A stretch of 23,679 bases of DNA, from IMG/VR virus record IMGVR_UViG_2671180884_000031, one strand, 5' to 3'. The stretch comes from a virus (lineage: Duplodnaviria; Heunggongvirae; Uroviricota; Caudoviricetes). The notes beneath the pieces were generated by a model, which ran no database searches, was not told where the DNA came from, and saw only the letters and a program-made list of their open reading frames with translations. Each line of letters starts with the position of its first letter. The first letter of the stretch is position 1. Made by a program: the position numbers and the translations under genes. Below are positions 5,418 through 21,548 of this stretch, piece by piece.

Positions 5418-5609
5418 TTAAAGACCTGCCGGGATTTCGATATTATCCTGGTGAATAACTTTATCGACCGGGTAACAGTTACCGGGAATTTTCTGTTCGG
5501 TTGCTGCAGTCATACACTCCTGCATTGTCCTGTGAACACTGACTGCAATATCAACTGGCTCTCCGGAAACAAGAAAAACTGTCAGAACAAGCGCAAATGC
5601 TGAATTCAT
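5418..5609 (-). CDS. ydfD: Small lysis/membrane protein YdfD (63 aa)
   Basis: Internal-Met product MNSAFALVLTVFLVSGEPVD... matches recalled YdfD; ATGA start/stop overlap with dicB. Confidence 0.75.
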   Translation of the reverse strand: MNSAFALVLTVFLVSGEPVDIAVSVHRTMQECMTAATEQKIPGNCYPVDKVIHQDNIEIPAGL

Positions 5610-5794
5610 TGTGCACATCCTTTTGGCATCAGACGTAAACGAGCCAGCATTGAAACAATGCATATTTTATTTAATAGCTCCCGTTCTTGTTTTCTCTTGT
5701 TAATGGCATCTTCAGTAAATACAGGGTTACTGATAGTGACACCAATTTCAAAACAACCTTCAGACGTATTAACGTTTGGTAATAACGTTTTCAT
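5606..5794 (-). CDS. dicB: Cell-division inhibitor DicB (62 aa)
   Basis: MKTLLPNVNTSEGCFEIGVTISNPVFTEDAINKRKQERELLNKICIVSMLARLRLMPKGCAQ from ATG at 5794 with a GAGGA SD upstream; matches recalled DicB. Confidence 0.85.
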   Translation of the reverse strand: MKTLLPNVNTSEGCFEIGVTISNPVFTEDAINKRKQERELLNKICIVSMLARLRLMPKGCAQ

Positions 5795-5967: not shown

Positions 5968-6021
5968 ACGGCGGTAGAGCAGTCACGGAGTAAAACTGAT
6001 ACTGCCAAACGTCACCAGAAA
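5968..6021 (-). ncRNA. dicF: DicF small regulatory RNA (ftsZ-targeting antisense sRNA)
   Basis: Minus strand reads TTTCTGGTGACGTTTGGCAGTATCAGTTTTACTCCGTGACTGCTCTACCGCCGTTTTT, near-identical to recalled K-12 DicF, ending in a GC stem plus T-run; lies ~170 bp upstream of dicB as in K-12. Confidence 0.8.
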
Positions 6022-6280: not shown

Positions 6281-6856
6281 TTAAGGATTCATTAAGCAAT
6301 GTCGCAACCACCAATAAATCCGCTTAAGAACATGAAAATTGATTACTGGTATAAAGCGCTTACAGTTGTTGGCGCTGCGTTGTTTGTCTTTAATGGAACG
6401 TCTTTTTTTGACAGATATCCCGTTGTTCCATTGGGTTTTTTGTCCTCCGGCATCTTTTTTATTGGTTTGGGGGAGTGGATTAATCACCCTCTCAAGGTGA
6501 GATTTATTGGTCCTGGAGTTTGGACTCGTGGATATAATCGTTCTTCGTGCGCACTCGGTATCATCTTCGACATACTTGGTTGTTTCCTGATTGTTACAGG
6601 AGTCGTCAAGTTCTTCTGATGTAAAACCGCAAATGGGGCACGTAACGGGAATTTTGAAAAGCGTTTCTCCGGGTTCCAGAACAAAATTTTCTGCGGTCTG
6701 ATTTTGCTTCTCATATTTGTGCTCCGCGTCATTGTGAGAGCACATTCTTATTCTGAGTGCCTGTTTAAACTCACTGAAGCTGAGAGCTTCTTCGCCTTCG
6801 GCAAGGCCTTCGAAGTATTCTTCGTAAGCCTTTTCCATGATTGTGTCGAAATCCAT
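6281..6856 (-). CDS. YdfB-like protein; 3' extent uncertain (the part at 6281..6619 may be an antisense shadow of the plus-strand membrane ORF)
   Basis: ATG at 6856 sits one nt after the ydfA stop; MDFDTIMEKAYEEYFEGLAEGEEALSFSEFKQAL resembles recalled YdfB (42 aa in K-12), but the frame stays open for 191 codons and includes a CPICGF motif. Confidence 0.35.
   Translation of the reverse strand: MDFDTIMEKAYEEYFEGLAEGEEALSFSEFKQALRIRMCSHNDAEHKYEKQNQTAENFVLEPGETLFKIPVTCPICGFTSEELDDSCNNQETTKYVEDDTECARRTIISTSPNSRTNKSHLERVINPLPQTNKKDAGGQKTQWNNGISVKKRRSIKDKQRSANNCKRFIPVINFHVLKRIYWWLRHCLMNP
6332..6619 (+). CDS. Hypothetical small membrane protein (three predicted TM segments)
   Basis: ORF 6299..6619; from the internal Met: MKIDYWYKALTVVGAALFVFNG...VVPLGFLSSGIFFIGLGEWI...SSCALGIIFDILGCFLIVTGVV. 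Convergent with, and codon-aligned antisense to, the minus-strand ORF 6281..6898, so only one of the two is likely real. Confidence 0.4.
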   Translation: MKIDYWYKALTVVGAALFVFNGTSFFDRYPVVPLGFLSSGIFFIGLGEWINHPLKVRFIGPGVWTRGYNRSSCALGIIFDILGCFLIVTGVVKFF

Positions 6857-6857
6857 A

Positions 6858-7013
6858 TCACTCACCTGAGTTTCTTTCCAGCCAGCGACGGGCACCATTT
6901 TCGGTTTTAAACGTTTTGCTTTTGGTATACGTCATCGCGGTGAACGTGCCGTCCTGGTTGGGGAACACGCCACATACCAGAGATTCGCTGTTGCCAAGAT
7001 CGATAGTATCCAT
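6858..7013 (-). CDS. ydfA: Small prophage protein YdfA (51 aa)
   Basis: MDTIDLGNSESLVCGVFPNQDGTFTAMTYTKSKTFKTENGARRWLERNSGE from ATG at 7013; matches recalled YdfA. Confidence 0.75.
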   Translation of the reverse strand: MDTIDLGNSESLVCGVFPNQDGTFTAMTYTKSKTFKTENGARRWLERNSGE

Positions 7014-7093
7014 GCTGACCTCATTTCCCCTTAACGCCGGGGTGGCGGAACTGTTTGCTGAGAACACCGTGCGGTGTGTTGATGTAAACAAGA

Positions 7094-7107
7094 TTAGCCA
7101 TGACTAA
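7094..7107. promoter_or_regulatory. Candidate DicA operator (TTAG-N6-CTAA palindrome) in the dicB-operon promoter region
   Basis: TTAGCCATGACTAA lies between dicA and ydfA; the same TTAG-N6-CTAA architecture recurs twice in the dicA-dicC intergenic region. Confidence 0.5.
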
Positions 7108-7157
7108 CATATTGGTCAAGTGATTTTGTATGTTATGGCTAACATAATTGATATAAT

Positions 7158-7188
7158 AAAAGATAACTCATTGATGATGTTATCTTTT
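7158..7188 (-). terminator. Candidate intrinsic terminator after dicA
   Basis: Perfect 10-bp inverted repeat AAAAGATAAC / GTTATCTTTT with an 11-nt loop, overlapping the dicA stop codon and followed on the minus strand by an A/T-rich tract. Confidence 0.4.
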
Positions 7189-7587
7189 ATTTGTCCGCTG
7201 ACGGGCTTTTAGTAATTCTTCAAAGAGTTTATTGAAATTTTTTACTCGAGCTCGCATTTCGGCGAGCTGGGTATCCTGTTCTGATTCTGGCAGTGCATTA
7301 AACAGCTCAAGGAGCTCTAGTTCTTTGGGGGCTAAGGCAACCGGCTTCTCAACAGGTGGTGTTGGTTGCTTGTCTTCATCGCCAAATAGAATCCATGTTG
7401 GTGAGCATTGCAATACTTTGCTGAGGGCAAAAAGGTTCTTCCCTGTAGGTTCACTATCATCCCGTTCCCATTGTGATACAGACACATGGGAGATTTTCAG
7501 GGCTTTAGCAAGAGACCTTTGGGTGTGTTTGAGGTTTTTCCGACGATACCTAATGCGTTCGCCGATGGTTAAATTTTTTGTATCCAT
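7180..7587 (-). CDS. dicA: HTH-XRE repressor DicA (135 aa)
   Basis: MDTKNLTIGERIRYRRKNLKHTQRSLAKALKISHVSVSQWERDDSEPTGKNLFALSKVLQCSPTWILFGDE...; XRE-type helix-turn-helix; matches recalled DicA. Confidence 0.85.
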   Translation of the reverse strand: MDTKNLTIGERIRYRRKNLKHTQRSLAKALKISHVSVSQWERDDSEPTGKNLFALSKVLQCSPTWILFGDEDKQPTPPVEKPVALAPKELELLELFNALPESEQDTQLAEMRARVKNFNKLFEELLKARQRTNKR

Positions 7588-7589
7588 AG

Positions 7590-7603
7590 TTAGCTAATGC
7601 TAA
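7590..7603. promoter_or_regulatory. Candidate DicA operator in the dicA-dicC divergent promoter region
   Basis: TTAGCTAATGCTAA (TTAG-N6-CTAA) starts 3 bp upstream of the dicA start codon. Confidence 0.45.
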
Positions 7604-7638
7604 ATCGTATTGACTATGTTTTTGTTAACATCTATTTT

Positions 7639-7654
7639 GTTAGTCATGACTAAC
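7639..7654. promoter_or_regulatory. Candidate DicA operator, perfect 16-bp palindrome
   Basis: GTTAGTCATGACTAAC is its own reverse complement; located 17 bp upstream of dicC. Confidence 0.55.
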
Positions 7655-7670
7655 ATCTAAGGTGTTTTAA

Positions 7671-7901
7671 ATGCTTAAAACTGACGCTCTTTTGTATTTC
7701 GGTTCAAAAACAAAACTTGCACAAGCAGCAGGTATTCGTTTGGCTTCGCTTTATAGCTGGAAAGGGGATTTAGTTCCCGAAGGTCGCGCGATGCGTCTAC
7801 AGGAGGCATCTGGCGGGGAGCTTCAGTATGATCCCAAAGTTTATGACGAATATCGTAAGACGAAGCGGGCGGGGCGGTTGAACAATGAAAATCACTCCTG
7901 A
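7671..7901 (+). CDS. dicC: Cro-like regulator DicC (76 aa)
   Basis: MLKTDALLYFGSKTKLAQAAGIRLASLYSWKGDLVPEGRAMRLQEASGGELQYDPKVYDEYRKTKRAGRL...; divergent from dicA. Confidence 0.8.
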   Translation: MLKTDALLYFGSKTKLAQAAGIRLASLYSWKGDLVPEGRAMRLQEASGGELQYDPKVYDEYRKTKRAGRLNNENHS

Positions 7902-8406
7902 ACAGGCTCGTGAGGCTCTGGATGCCTGGATATGTCGACCAGGAATGACACAGGAGCAGGCGACGATATTAATCACTGAAGCATTCTGGGCTTTGAAAGA
8001 GCGCTCGAACATCGATGTTCAGCGTGTCACATATGAAGGTGGCGCGGTTGATCAGCGAGCGCTTAGCGTTAATCGAGTGAAGATATTTGAACGCTGGAAG
8101 GCTATCGACACCAGGGATAAGCGTGAAAAGTTCACAGCGCTAGTGCCTGCAATTATGGAGGCTATCCGGATTAGTGATTTCAGGTTGTATCGTGAAATTA
8201 GTGACGGAAAGAGCATTACGTACATGATCGCTGGGTTAAATAAAGAATATGGCGATGTGGTGGAGTCCGGACTGCTTTTTGCAGATCCTGCCGTTGTAGA
8301 TCGTGAAACTGACGAACTTATAGAAAAAGCAATTGCTTTCAAGCTTGCGTATCGACAGCAATACCAACAAAAAGCTGGATGGAATTATGAGTCTTCTTTT
8401 TGCTGA
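7885..8406 (+). CDS. YdaT-like prophage protein (CII-like regulator / toxin YdaT family)
   Basis: 173-aa ORF overlapping the dicC 3' end by 17 bp; KREKFTALVPAIMEAIRISDFR resembles the Rac YdaT segment QREKIQKLIPAILAILPRELR. Confidence 0.5.
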   Translation: MKITPEQAREALDAWICRPGMTQEQATILITEAFWALKERSNIDVQRVTYEGGAVDQRALSVNRVKIFERWKAIDTRDKREKFTALVPAIMEAIRISDFRLYREISDGKSITYMIAGLNKEYGDVVESGLLFADPAVVDRETDELIEKAIAFKLAYRQQYQQKAGWNYESSFC

Positions 8407-15972: not shown

Positions 15973-16183
15973 TTTCACATTGGCGAGGTAACGGTAGTTA
16001 AGTAGAATGGCTGCGGGTGCTTGAGGCTATCTGCCTCGGGCATGAACACCAACGGCAGATAGAGAAAAGCCCCAGTTAACATTACGCGTCCTGCAAGACG
16101 CTTAACATTAATCTGAGGCCAATTTCATGCTAGACATATGTAGGTTAGCCTCTTACGTGCCGAAAGGCAAGGAGAAGCAGGCT

Positions 16184-16339
16184 ATGAAGCAGCAAAAGGC
16201 GATGTTAATCGCCCTGATCGTCATCTGTTTAACCGTCATAGTGACGGCACTGGTAACGAGGAAAGACCTCTGCGAGGTACGAATCCGAACCGGCCAGACG
16301 GAGGTCGCTGTCTTCACAGCTTACGAACCTGAGGAGTAA
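16184..16339 (+). CDS. hokD: Hok-family small membrane toxin HokD (RelF)
   Basis: MKQQKAMLIALIVICLTVIVTALVTRKDLCEVRIRTGQTEVAVFTAYEPEE matches recalled HokD; AAGGAGAA SD; an in-frame upstream ATG at 16127 could give an extended form. Confidence 0.8.
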   Translation: MKQQKAMLIALIVICLTVIVTALVTRKDLCEVRIRTGQTEVAVFTAYEPEE

Positions 16340-17933: not shown

Positions 17934-18243
17934 TTTAGGGGACAGAAAAACTCCTTAATACTGATAACCTGGTGCACCATACACACGTTCCTGGAGAAAA
18001 CTACTTTTTTGATAGGGTTGAAGGTGGCTGGATGTCTAAAATAAACATTGCTTCATATGTTCAACTATGAGTTAATGACTGTGTCGGTTTGAAGAACAGA
18101 CGATATACGAAGTAGTTTACTAAAGCAGTTCTCATTTCAGGTGTTATTCACTTATTCCTTCTTTGAGTCTCTCCAATTAAGTACGAAGTCGTTTCTGTTA
18201 TGCAAACCATTTATGCCGAAAGGCTCAAGTTAAGGAATGTAGA

Positions 18244-18459
18244 ATGTCAAATAAAATGACTGGTTTAGTAAAATGGTTTAACGCTGATAAAGGTTTCGGC
18301 TTTATTTCTCCTGTTGATGGTAGTAAAGATGTGTTTGTGCATTTTTCTGCGATTCAGAATGATAATTATCGAACCTTATTTGAAGGTCAAAAGGTTACCT
18401 TCTCTATAGAGAGTGGTGCTAAAGGTCCTGCAGCAGCAAATGTCATCATTACTGATTAA
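18244..18459 (+). CDS. cspB: Cold-shock protein CspB-like (71 aa)
   Basis: [53 protein letters not shown]...; cold-shock-domain RNP motifs; long 5' UTR typical of csp genes. Confidence 0.8.
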
Positions 18460-18740
18460 AATTCATCGCTCGTCTGTATACGATAACGAAGAAGGCTGAT
18501 GCCTGAGTAGAGATACGGACAGAGTAGTGAATATTGGATCTCTTTAATAAAAAGTAAGGAGGTCCAATACATGAAACAATGGCCAGCATATTTGGCAAAA
18601 TCTTAATCAGGAAAAGTATGCTAACCATTGTGGTGAAGTGCAGGTTTGCTGCATGAATAGTTTCACAGCAGAAGCTAACTGCTGGCATCGCAAAACAAAG
18701 TGCGTAAGTGGATGACTCCCACAAAAAGCACCACAATCTC

Positions 18741-20767: not shown

Positions 20768-21129
20768 GGTAATATTAAATCGGAACATTTACATCGCGGA
20801 ATGTAAAATTTAAATAAAAAGGACTCTTCCATGAGCCAAAATTCCTGAAATCTTAAGGGTAAGATAAAAGGTCTTAATCAGAATGACACGTTTTATTAAT
20901 AAATAAAGCTATTCTTTCATTGCTGTGTTTTTCTTTACAAAAGTAATCCTTGCTATGGGTGGTTAATCATGCGTTAATGGTGTTCTGGTTTGTTACAAAT
21001 TTATCTGAAGCAGTCATTGTTATAATTTTATTATTTGTACCTCTTGAGATTTCCTTGTTGGTTTTTCTCTCTGATATTTTTTTTCGGACCATTCTGCCCA
21101 AGGGCTAATTTCTTCAAAAGGTAATAATT

Positions 21130-21342
21130 ATGTCTAACAAAATGACTGGTTTAGTAAAATGGTTTAACCCTGAAAAAGGTTTTGGTTTCATCACGCCGAA
21201 AGATGGCAGCAAAGATGTGTTTGTCCATTTCTCAGCAATTCAGAGCAACGATTTCAAAACATTAACTGAGAATCAGGAAGTTGAATTTGGTATTGAGAAC
21301 GGACCTAAAGGTCCTGCCGCTGTTCATGTAGTGGCGCTTTGA
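21130..21342 (+). CDS. cspI: Cold-shock protein CspI (70 aa)
   Basis: [70 protein letters not shown] matches recalled CspI. Confidence 0.85.
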
Positions 21343-21548
21343 GGTAGACAATATTACAAACCATATTCACTTTAGATGCCCGTGTTGTCATGGTTCCCAG
21401 TATAGAACATCATCTTTTGATGTTTCTGACATGAATCCTTTCGGGGCAAAATGTATCTTTTGTAAATCAATGATGATTACATTTGATAATATTTCACAAT
21501 ACTTAAATGCTAGCCGTCTGTCGTTGGATTTAAAAAAGTGAAAATGAA

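Follow-up and report, generated by a model that had tools for sequence, protein, structure and literature searches.

Five two-fold symmetric sites as predicted DicA and DicC operators in the dicA-dicC-dicB immunity region of a Qin-type prophage of Escherichia coli

The DNA analysed here, referred to below as the window, is the 23,679-nucleotide virus record IMGVR_UViG_2671180884_000031 (Caudoviricetes) from IMG/VR, and this report concerns a set of TTAG-N6-CTAA palindromes and related sites that lie on both sides of its dicA gene. Gene calls from open reading frames (ORFs) and from the public annotation are in agreement. On the minus strand, dicA (7180-7587) encodes a 135-residue repressor with an N-terminal helix-turn-helix (HTH), and the same strand carries ydfA (6858-7013; DUF1391), the first gene of the dicB operon that is transcribed from dicBp, followed by the small RNA DicF (5969-6020; Rfam RF00039, 62 bits), by dicB (5606-5794), which like DicF is a downstream target of the repression, and by ydfD (5418-5609). 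Divergently, on the plus strand, dicC (7671-7901) encodes a 76-residue Cro homologue and leads into a ydaT-like gene (7885-8406). The window thus shows the synteny of Qin-type prophages, with ydfA and dicA on one strand, a divergent dicC, a ydaT/ydfX-like gene, and DicF and dicB downstream of ydfA. DicA matches the Pfam families HTH_3 and Phage_CI_repr, and the first 65 residues of the protein can be aligned with the DNA-binding domain of P22 C2 (E=8e-20 against PDB 1adr; about 1e-19 for 1adr/2r1j), while DicC matches P22_Cro (1.7e-11) and PDB 1rzs (7e-6), so that the repressor/Cro pair is homologous to C2/CI and Cro as in lambdoid phages. Pfam matches of DicA are limited to HTH families, with no S24 peptidase among them, and the protein accordingly departs from the lambdoid repressors that carry a RecA-cleavable C-terminal S24 peptidase. 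Over 6800-7950, the window matches E. coli 2018-166 with 100% identity and K-12 EMG2 and C600 with 97.4%, most of this segment is present in about 845 of 5,426 complete E. coli genomes, and the deposited phage genome PhiR42_1 (from ECOR13) has a matching immunity region with 97.5% identity. Judged from its sequence, the window belongs to E. coli and represents a lambdoid prophage of the Qin type, and the locus is the dicA-dicC-dicB immunity region.

An exact search for TTAG-N6-CTAA returned three matches in the whole window, at 7094-7107 (TTAGCCATGACTAA), 7590-7603 (TTAGCTAATGCTAA) and 7640-7653 (within 7639-7654, GTTAGTCATGACTAAC), against 0.36 expected by chance, and none of 100 dinucleotide-preserving shuffles contained three or more. 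These are the three palindromes that an earlier sequence-only reading had listed as DicA operators; all of them, including the second site in the dicA-dicC divergent region, were found where that reading had placed them, and there is no fourth. The palindrome at 7639-7654, described there as perfect over 16 bp, is indeed perfect, but its full symmetry spans 18 bp (7638-7655). When the 18-bp consensus TGTTAGYYATRRCTAACA was searched with up to three mismatches, the window yielded only 7092-7109, 7127-7144 and 7638-7655 (0.08 matches expected). Because this search recovers 7127-7144, the stretch at 7131-7146, which had been taken for an additional half-site copy, is real as a sequence but turns out to be the good half of a degenerate full-length site, termed OL2 below. 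An unbiased repeat search produced a family, D1, that groups 7123-7145, 7609-7631 and 7634-7656, the last two lying 25 bp apart. Since D1 places 7609-7631 together with the stretches around OL2 and around the perfect palindrome (Oc), it uncovered a further site, Om (7613-7630), which had been overlooked when only Oc and the match at 7590-7603 (Oa) were noted between dicA and dicC, both of which stand. The centres of Oc, Om and Oa fall at 7646.5, 7621.5 and 7596.5, that is, in 25-bp steps, those of OL2 and of the match at 7094-7107 (OL1) fall 35 bp apart at 7135.5 and 7100.5, and the distance between the OL and OR centres is 546 bp. At the level of the nucleotide sequence, therefore, the region holds five 18-bp sites of two-fold symmetry that follow the single consensus TGTTAG-YY-AT-RR-CTAACA, three between the divergent dicA and dicC genes and two further copies at the leftward promoter dicBp.

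The best characterized of these sites is Oc (7638..7655), an 18-bp perfect palindrome TGTTAGTCATGACTAACA that covers about -8 to +11 of the dicC promoter. The K-12 operator of the same name is TTGTTAGTCATAACTAACAA (Yun et al., 2012; PMC3441716), and positions 7656..7637 of the window, read on the dicA-sense strand, agree with it in 18 of 20 bases. In K-12, DicA-dependent repression via Oc was seen in vivo, cloned promoter fragments gained point mutations that were concentrated in Oc, and an A-to-C exchange within the CTAAC half (Oc*) abolished DicA binding (Yun et al., 2012; PMC3441716). The base equivalent to this mutation is 7641 in the window, and it is invariant across 51 distinct alleles, to which the 711-bp regulatory segment from 78 loci with DicA 92-100% identical was reduced. 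A PR-like promoter, dicCp, is predicted at 7610..7638 on the plus strand, with the -35 hexamer TTGACT (7610-7615), a 17-bp spacer and the -10 hexamer TATTTT (7633-7638); it was found by the automatic promoter scan with 9/12 consensus matches. The dicC start was mapped by 5' rapid amplification of cDNA ends (5'-RACE) in K-12, where Oc lies over the -10 region and DicA bound at Oc activates dicA (PMC3441716); as the -11 A of that mapping falls at 7634, the start in the window would be near 7645. Oc overlaps both the -10 hexamer at 7633-7638 and this inferred start, as in Qin. The annotated DicA site, as quoted in a 2026 Reg-Seq preprint, spans -8 to +12 of dicCp, and the same preprint reports that intact DicA sites were again selected against when carried on plasmids. 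The perfect palindrome proposed as a DicA operator is hence the published Oc, bound in vivo by K-12 DicA (PMC3441716). Oc is the main DicA operator, and it probably serves as a DicC operator as well.

On the other side of dicA, OL1 (7092..7109, core 7094-7107; TGTTAGTCATGGCTAATC in dicA sense) is a predicted operator that fills the spacer and the -10 of dicBp, and OL2 (7127..7144; TGTTAGCCATAACATACA in dicA sense), likewise predicted, lies upstream of the -35. The promoter-proximal half of OL2 is degenerate (CATA), and in two 79%-identical relatives (L108 and L109) the corresponding sequence, TGTTAGCCTTGGCTACCA, is a much better site. The PL-like promoter itself is predicted at 7091..7119 on the minus strand, with the -35 hexamer TTGACC (7119..7114), a 17-bp spacer and the -10 hexamer TAATCT (7096..7091), from which a start at about 7083-7085 was read. 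As the automatic scan did not call dicBp, its placement relies on manual reading, on the -35 hexamer, which is invariant in the 51 alleles, and on numbering from the literature: a published RNase III cut at transcript position 813/814 creates the 5' end of a 190-nucleotide DicF species, and this numbering, combined with the position of DicF in K-12, puts +1 at about 7089, within approximately 5 nucleotides of the predicted start. Ragunathan et al. (2023; PMC10448788) placed dicBp upstream of ydfA, measured a 22-fold repression by DicA, and credited operator sequences at both promoters to Bejar et al. (1988). The palindrome at 7094..7107, which had been suggested to sit at the promoter of the dicB operon, falls within the spacer and -10 of the one stretch upstream of ydfA that makes a good promoter candidate; this position agrees with the published dicBp (PMC10448788), and the comparative footprint and the co-variation with the repressor described below lend it further support. 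One review sentence gives "three" operators at dicBp, and nothing consensus-like is present 25 or 35 bp to either side of OL1 and OL2, which leaves only two recognisable PL sites.

A perfect 13-bp inverted repeat (7155-7167 / 7179-7191, minus strand) spans the dicA stop codon, and the hairpin that it forms on the dicA strand (7155-7191; -13.8 kcal/mol, z = -4.35) is followed by the U-rich run UUUUAUUAU. It is plausible that this hairpin is the dicA terminator and, located just upstream of OL2 and dicBp, insulates dicBp. Three variable positions in the loop and stem of the hairpin show joint changes in 16-18 of the 51 alleles. We also noted that the leader of the dicBp transcript (7014-7085, minus strand; CATCAAcACACCGCACGGTGTTCTCAGCAAACAGTTCCGC..CCCCGGCGTTAAGGGG), which ends just before the ydfA ribosome binding site, is conserved across hetero-immune types and recognisable in Citrobacter and Enterobacter, with the motifs CAC(A/G)C(A/G)GTG and GTTCCGC and a GC hairpin. 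RNAalifold on nine diverse leaders gave -2.4 kcal/mol with no compensatory pairs, and there was no Rfam match to the leader, which may serve as an RNA element, a processing site or a protein site.

We compared the sites within the immunity type. In the spacer between dicA and ydfA, 53 of 166 columns are variable among the 51 alleles, and within this variable DNA the TGTTAG, the central AT and the CTAA (CA[T/A]A in OL2) of OL1 and OL2 are essentially fixed; in Oc, the TGTTAG, central AT and CTAAC are invariant. Hypervariable flanks adjoin each site (7110-7113 for OL1, 7146-7157 for OL2 and 7656-7658 for Oc). The common footprint of Oc, OL1 and OL2 is thus TGTTAG-YY-AT-RR-CTAA amid variable flanks. 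Inside this footprint, positions ±2 and ±3 (YY..RR) vary frequently in all three sites, exclusively by transitions, and the inner stretches 7644-7649, 7098-7103 and 7133-7138 give rise to 9 distinct 18-mers for Oc, 13 for OL1 and 13 for OL2. The P22 repressor reads the central bases of its operators indirectly (PMC4267663), and the transition-only change at ±2 and ±3 fits such an indirect read-out. The inner-position polymorphism might reflect tuning through indirect read-out, or gene conversion among the operators. We would venture, as a speculation that we hold to be possible but rather doubtful, that positions ±2/±3 of Oc, OL1 and OL2 are a tuning knob for repressor affinity and for the rate of spontaneous DicB/DicF switching, with gene conversion as a possible contributor and with Oa acting mainly in shut-off by DicC.

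Comparison across immunity types was performed with hetero-immune loci from E. coli, E. albertii, E. ruysiae, Citrobacter, Enterobacter, Rahnella, Symbiopectobacterium, Buttiauxella and Superficieibacter, in which the flanking genes are kept and DicA and DicC are 51-62% and 69-84% identical, respectively. All of these relatives carry palindromes centred about -59, -34 and -9 from the dicA ATG, as well as two sites at approximately +44 (OL2) and +80 (OL1) past the dicA stop, which bracket a TTGNC -35. The half-sites follow the recognition helix of the repressor. Loci with the helix SHVSVSQWER have the operator TGTTAG..CTAACA; AHVTISQWER goes with TGTTAG or CCTTAG, an AT-rich core, and CTAACA or CTAAGG; SGSSISLWES with TTGAG-N4-CTCAA; SSVSVFKWEN with ATAAC..GTTAT; and SHVTIFKWEN with a CTTAAC-type half-site. 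At least five half-site types were distinguished in this way, and they shift in parallel at PR and PL. On average, Oc agrees with the PL sites of its own locus in 14.1 of 18 positions and with those of different-helix loci in 11.3 of 18 (Mann-Whitney p = 5e-10, which is generous given the non-independence of the loci); in the type to which the window belongs, the agreement is 15 of 18 with its own PL and at most 11 with PL sites of other helices. This excess of own-PL matches, along with the parallel change of half-sites, is the classical signature of immunity-specific operators. Three short contigs with E. coli-type dicA regions (L009, L018 and L019) are assigned to metagenome-assembled genomes labelled Collinsella sp., Bacillota bacterium and Veillonella parvula; the DicA of L009 is 99% identical to that of the window, and those of L018 and L019 equal the DicA of E. 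coli O55:H7 (L007), which is 57% identical to the window's. They are almost certainly mis-binned enterobacterial prophage contigs.

Two sites remain between dicA and dicC. Om (7613..7630; TGTTAACAAAAACATAGT in dicA sense) is a degenerate, Om-like middle site that overlaps the -35 and the spacer of dicCp; family D1 aligns it in the same register as Oc and OL2, and it is separated by exactly 25 bp from Oc on one side and from Oa on the other, is invariant in the 51 alleles, and has an equivalent in the hetero-immune relatives. The Oa-like site (7588..7605, core 7590-7603) ends, with its core, 2 nucleotides upstream of the dicA ATG, and overlaps a candidate dicA -10, TAGCAT (7597..7602, minus strand), which we place by inference in the left half of Oa. 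No 4-mer resembling a Shine-Dalgarno (SD) sequence precedes the ATG in any of 17 distinct upstream regions of the family, and in 16 of these 17 a -10-like TAnnAT ends 7-10 nucleotides before the ATG. The K-12 dicA mRNA was classed as leaderless by differential RNA-seq, along with racR and ymfK (PMC4681348), which together with the TAnnAT position and the missing SD points to a dicA core promoter within Oa. No -35 is recognisable for dicA in the window, and this fits an activator-dependent promoter (PMC3441716). The predicted operators consequently overlap core elements of the PR-, PL- and PRM-like promoters, all of which are themselves predicted for this allele.

Could the TTAG...CTAA symmetry of Oa then be a by-product of the leaderless dicA -10 and start region, with Oa being no operator at all? 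The promoter features just described are compatible with this, and in K-12 DicA did not bind Om or Oa, which are predicted operators there, when either was offered alone (data not shown in PMC3441716). Moreover, the Oa of the L007 type is still TTAAGATATCTAAA even though its Oc reads TTGAG..CTCAA, so promoter function constrains Oa, either in addition to repressor recognition or in its place. Across the SGSSISLWES type (L007, L018 and L021), TATTAAGATATCTAAATA stands at the promoter-proximal position, about -8.5 relative to the ATG of the repressor, and is unlike the type's own Oc, TTGAG-N4-CTCAA; it may resemble a P22-type operator. Nevertheless, several immunity types keep Oa at a distance of exactly 25 bp from Om and 50 bp from Oc, one half would suffice for the -10 and yet the two-fold related CTAAC half is kept too, and in the PPompW and L006 types Oa carries a locus-specific TTAG..CTAA core. 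In addition, DicC represses dicA 48- to 84-fold, and its strongest signal in chromatin immunoprecipitation with sequencing (ChIP-seq) was at the dicA-dicC intergenic region. We consequently regard an Oa without operator function as unlikely. Om and Oa may require cooperativity, or may be used by DicC only, or the main constraint on Oa may be its role as a promoter. Given the reported failure of DicA alone to bind Oa and the strong repression of dicA by DicC, the most economical reading is that Oa resembles OR3 and shuts off dicA, with DicC as its chief user and with DicA perhaps joining when abundant or through cooperative binding. The TTAG-N6-CTAA site at 7590..7603 is real, but its designation as a DicA operator has to be set against the reported lack of binding by DicA alone (PMC3441716), and its overlap with the leaderless dicA -10 speaks for an OR3-like role and not for a site that represses dicC or dicB.

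Because DicA and DicC are homologous to C2 and Cro of P22, the sites are best read as shared DicA/DicC operators of a bistable switch, and we consider it very probable that this Qin-type prophage has a P22-like immunity switch whose operators are the palindromes. Under this reading, DicA dimers of the short C2/CI type would fill the strong sites Oc and OL1 and exclude RNA polymerase, whereby the dicC-ydaT-replication genes and the ydfA-DicF-dicB-ydfD operon would both be silenced; at Oc, DicA would also switch on the weak leaderless promoter of dicA. Om and OL2 may act as weaker auxiliary sites, and the order of site quality, Oc above Oa and Om, is in line with graded affinities but at most suggestive of them. 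DicC would bind the same sites and, perhaps with a preference for Oa over the dicA -10 and start, turn off dicA and thereby flip the switch, and looping between OL and OR is possible.

It may be asked whether DicC is needed in this scheme, since the sequence-only reading took all three TTAG-N6-CTAA sites for DicA operators, in keeping with repression of dicC and of the dicB operon by DicA. In favour of DicA acting alone, DicA binds Oc and represses dicC (PMC3441716) as well as dicBp, and basal dicBp activity is the same after deletion of dicC (PMC10448788). The antirepressor Rem lifts the repression by DicA, and bistable switching, spontaneous as well as stress-induced, requires DicC (PMC10448788). 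DicC was found by ChIP-seq to occupy both sides of dicA; together with its homology to P22 Cro, its strong repression of dicA and the reported failure of DicA to bind Oa alone, this makes it quite improbable that DicC has no role at the sites. The logic of DicA repressing both dicC and the dicB operon is thus supported, but not an exclusive use of the sites by DicA, as DicC probably shares them. DicA and DicC are not mentioned in the main text of the E. coli transcription factor compendium, which was consulted for a ChIP-seq motif.

Host factors such as YjdC/DicD or Cnu-H-NS have also been connected with this locus, YjdC being enriched at the dic locus by ChIP followed by quantitative PCR and CnuK9E-H-NS antagonising DicA at Oc (PMC3441716). 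That the palindromes are targets of these factors and not of the prophage repressors is nonetheless very improbable, as the half-sites track the recognition helix of the prophage repressor in hosts that have these same factors, and the Oc point mutation abolishes DicA-dependent repression (PMC3441716). Short AT-rich palindromes are frequent in promoter regions, but functionless chance occurrence is barely conceivable in view of the shuffling result, the location of every match at promoter elements of two regulated operons, the selective conservation and the co-variation.

Several points weigh against reading the sites as DicA/DicC operators. DicA binding is known for K-12 Oc, whereas OL1, OL2 and the sites of this particular allele are predicted. 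The DicA site at dicB is listed in RegulonDB with low evidence and without a location, as quoted by Reg-Seq in 2020, and dicBp scores just 8/12 against the sigma-70 consensus, below the threshold of the automatic promoter scan. The identification of 7590-7603 with Oa and of 7613-7630 with Om was made by position only, and both are among the sites reportedly not bound by DicA alone (PMC3441716). Furthermore, 7588-7635, which contains Oa, Om and the dicCp -35, is near-invariant as a whole block, so that conservation says nothing on Oa or Om individually, and the alleles and loci compared share descent, so that the own-versus-other statistics overstate their independence.

The closest known system is Qin of K-12, which has the same locus and gene order, with 97.4% identity over ydfA-dicA-dicC, an identical DicC and a DicA that is 97% identical. 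The operator positions are the same, and the window does not differ from K-12 in Oa, Om, OL1 or either -35 hexamer. In contrast to K-12, the Oc of the window is a perfect palindrome, with G at 7645 (dicA sense) where K-12 has A and a flank change at 7656, and two inner positions of OL2 are not the same. The prophage in the window is also more intact than Qin, in that its exonuclease, integrase, excisionase and YdaT-like genes are full-length, and it lacks ydfC.

More distant parallels come from P22, lambda and CP-933P. The immC region of P22 likewise has homologous C2 and Cro proteins encoded by divergent genes with operators at PR-like and PL-like promoters, and the operator of the P22 repressor has the same frame as the dic sites. 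Unlike C2, DicA has a short and unrelated C-terminal domain without a RecA-cleavable peptidase; the window has two recognisable PL sites 35 bp apart where P22 has OL1-3; and its half-site is TGTTAG and not the P22 type, ATTTAAG. Lambda shares with the dic locus a tripartite OR between divergent repressor and cro genes, a leaderless repressor gene, a repressor that activates its own weak promoter and represses PR, and bistability with Cro; the arrangement of the dicA core promoter within Oa is akin to OR3/PRM of lambda and to CP-933P. The dic operators, however, have another sequence, are 18 bp instead of 17 bp long and 25 bp instead of 23-24 bp apart, the activating site Oc lies about -57 to -60 from the dicA start instead of -42, and induction is by Rem and not by RecA. 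DicA is reported to have no Ala-Gly site, and mitomycin C does not cause induction (PMC10448788). In CP-933P of E. coli O157:H7 (De Bruyn et al., 2021), the PaaR2/YdaS system occupies the same genomic position with repressor, Cro/YdaS and YdaT, the repressor gene is leaderless, and 18-bp intergenic palindromes recur at a PL-like promoter with identical -35/-10 logic. It differs from the window in having a repressor of another family, the half-site GTTTAGTAA, four equally spaced repeats, and co-transcription of the repressor with a toxin-antitoxin pair. The Gifsy-type short repressors GfoR/GtgR (Lemire et al., 2011) are under antirepressor control, and DicA, a named member of their group, is without a self-cleavage domain and is inactivated by the antirepressor Rem; since DicA lacks the RecA-cleavable peptidase domain, it belongs to this antirepressor-controlled class.

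As to the remainder of the prophage, exonuclease, excisionase and integrase genes lie beyond ydfD and adjoin rspAB. The ydfB frame extends to a 205-residue ORF (6281-6898, minus strand), where RefSeq gives a truncated ydfB pseudogene, and DicF is the only feature annotated between dicB and ydfB. Further along, Rfam identifies a sok antitoxin RNA beside hokD and two cspA-type thermoregulator leaders (16015-16189, 18083-18475 and 20984-21369).

The dic switch is already known: its first descriptions date from 1986-88, and it was taken up again in 2012 and 2023. What is added here is a base-resolution map of five sites with the consensus TGTTAG-YY-AT-RR-CTAACA and a placement of the dicBp operators, where the DicA site was still given as having no known location in one recent source. 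These sites control DicB and DicF, prophage inhibitors of FtsZ-dependent cell division, and it is because DicB and DicF block cell division that dicA is essential in K-12. The rule that links recognition helix to half-site could serve for immunity typing of Qin-like prophages and of phages such as PhiR42_1 and PPompW/Stx2a.

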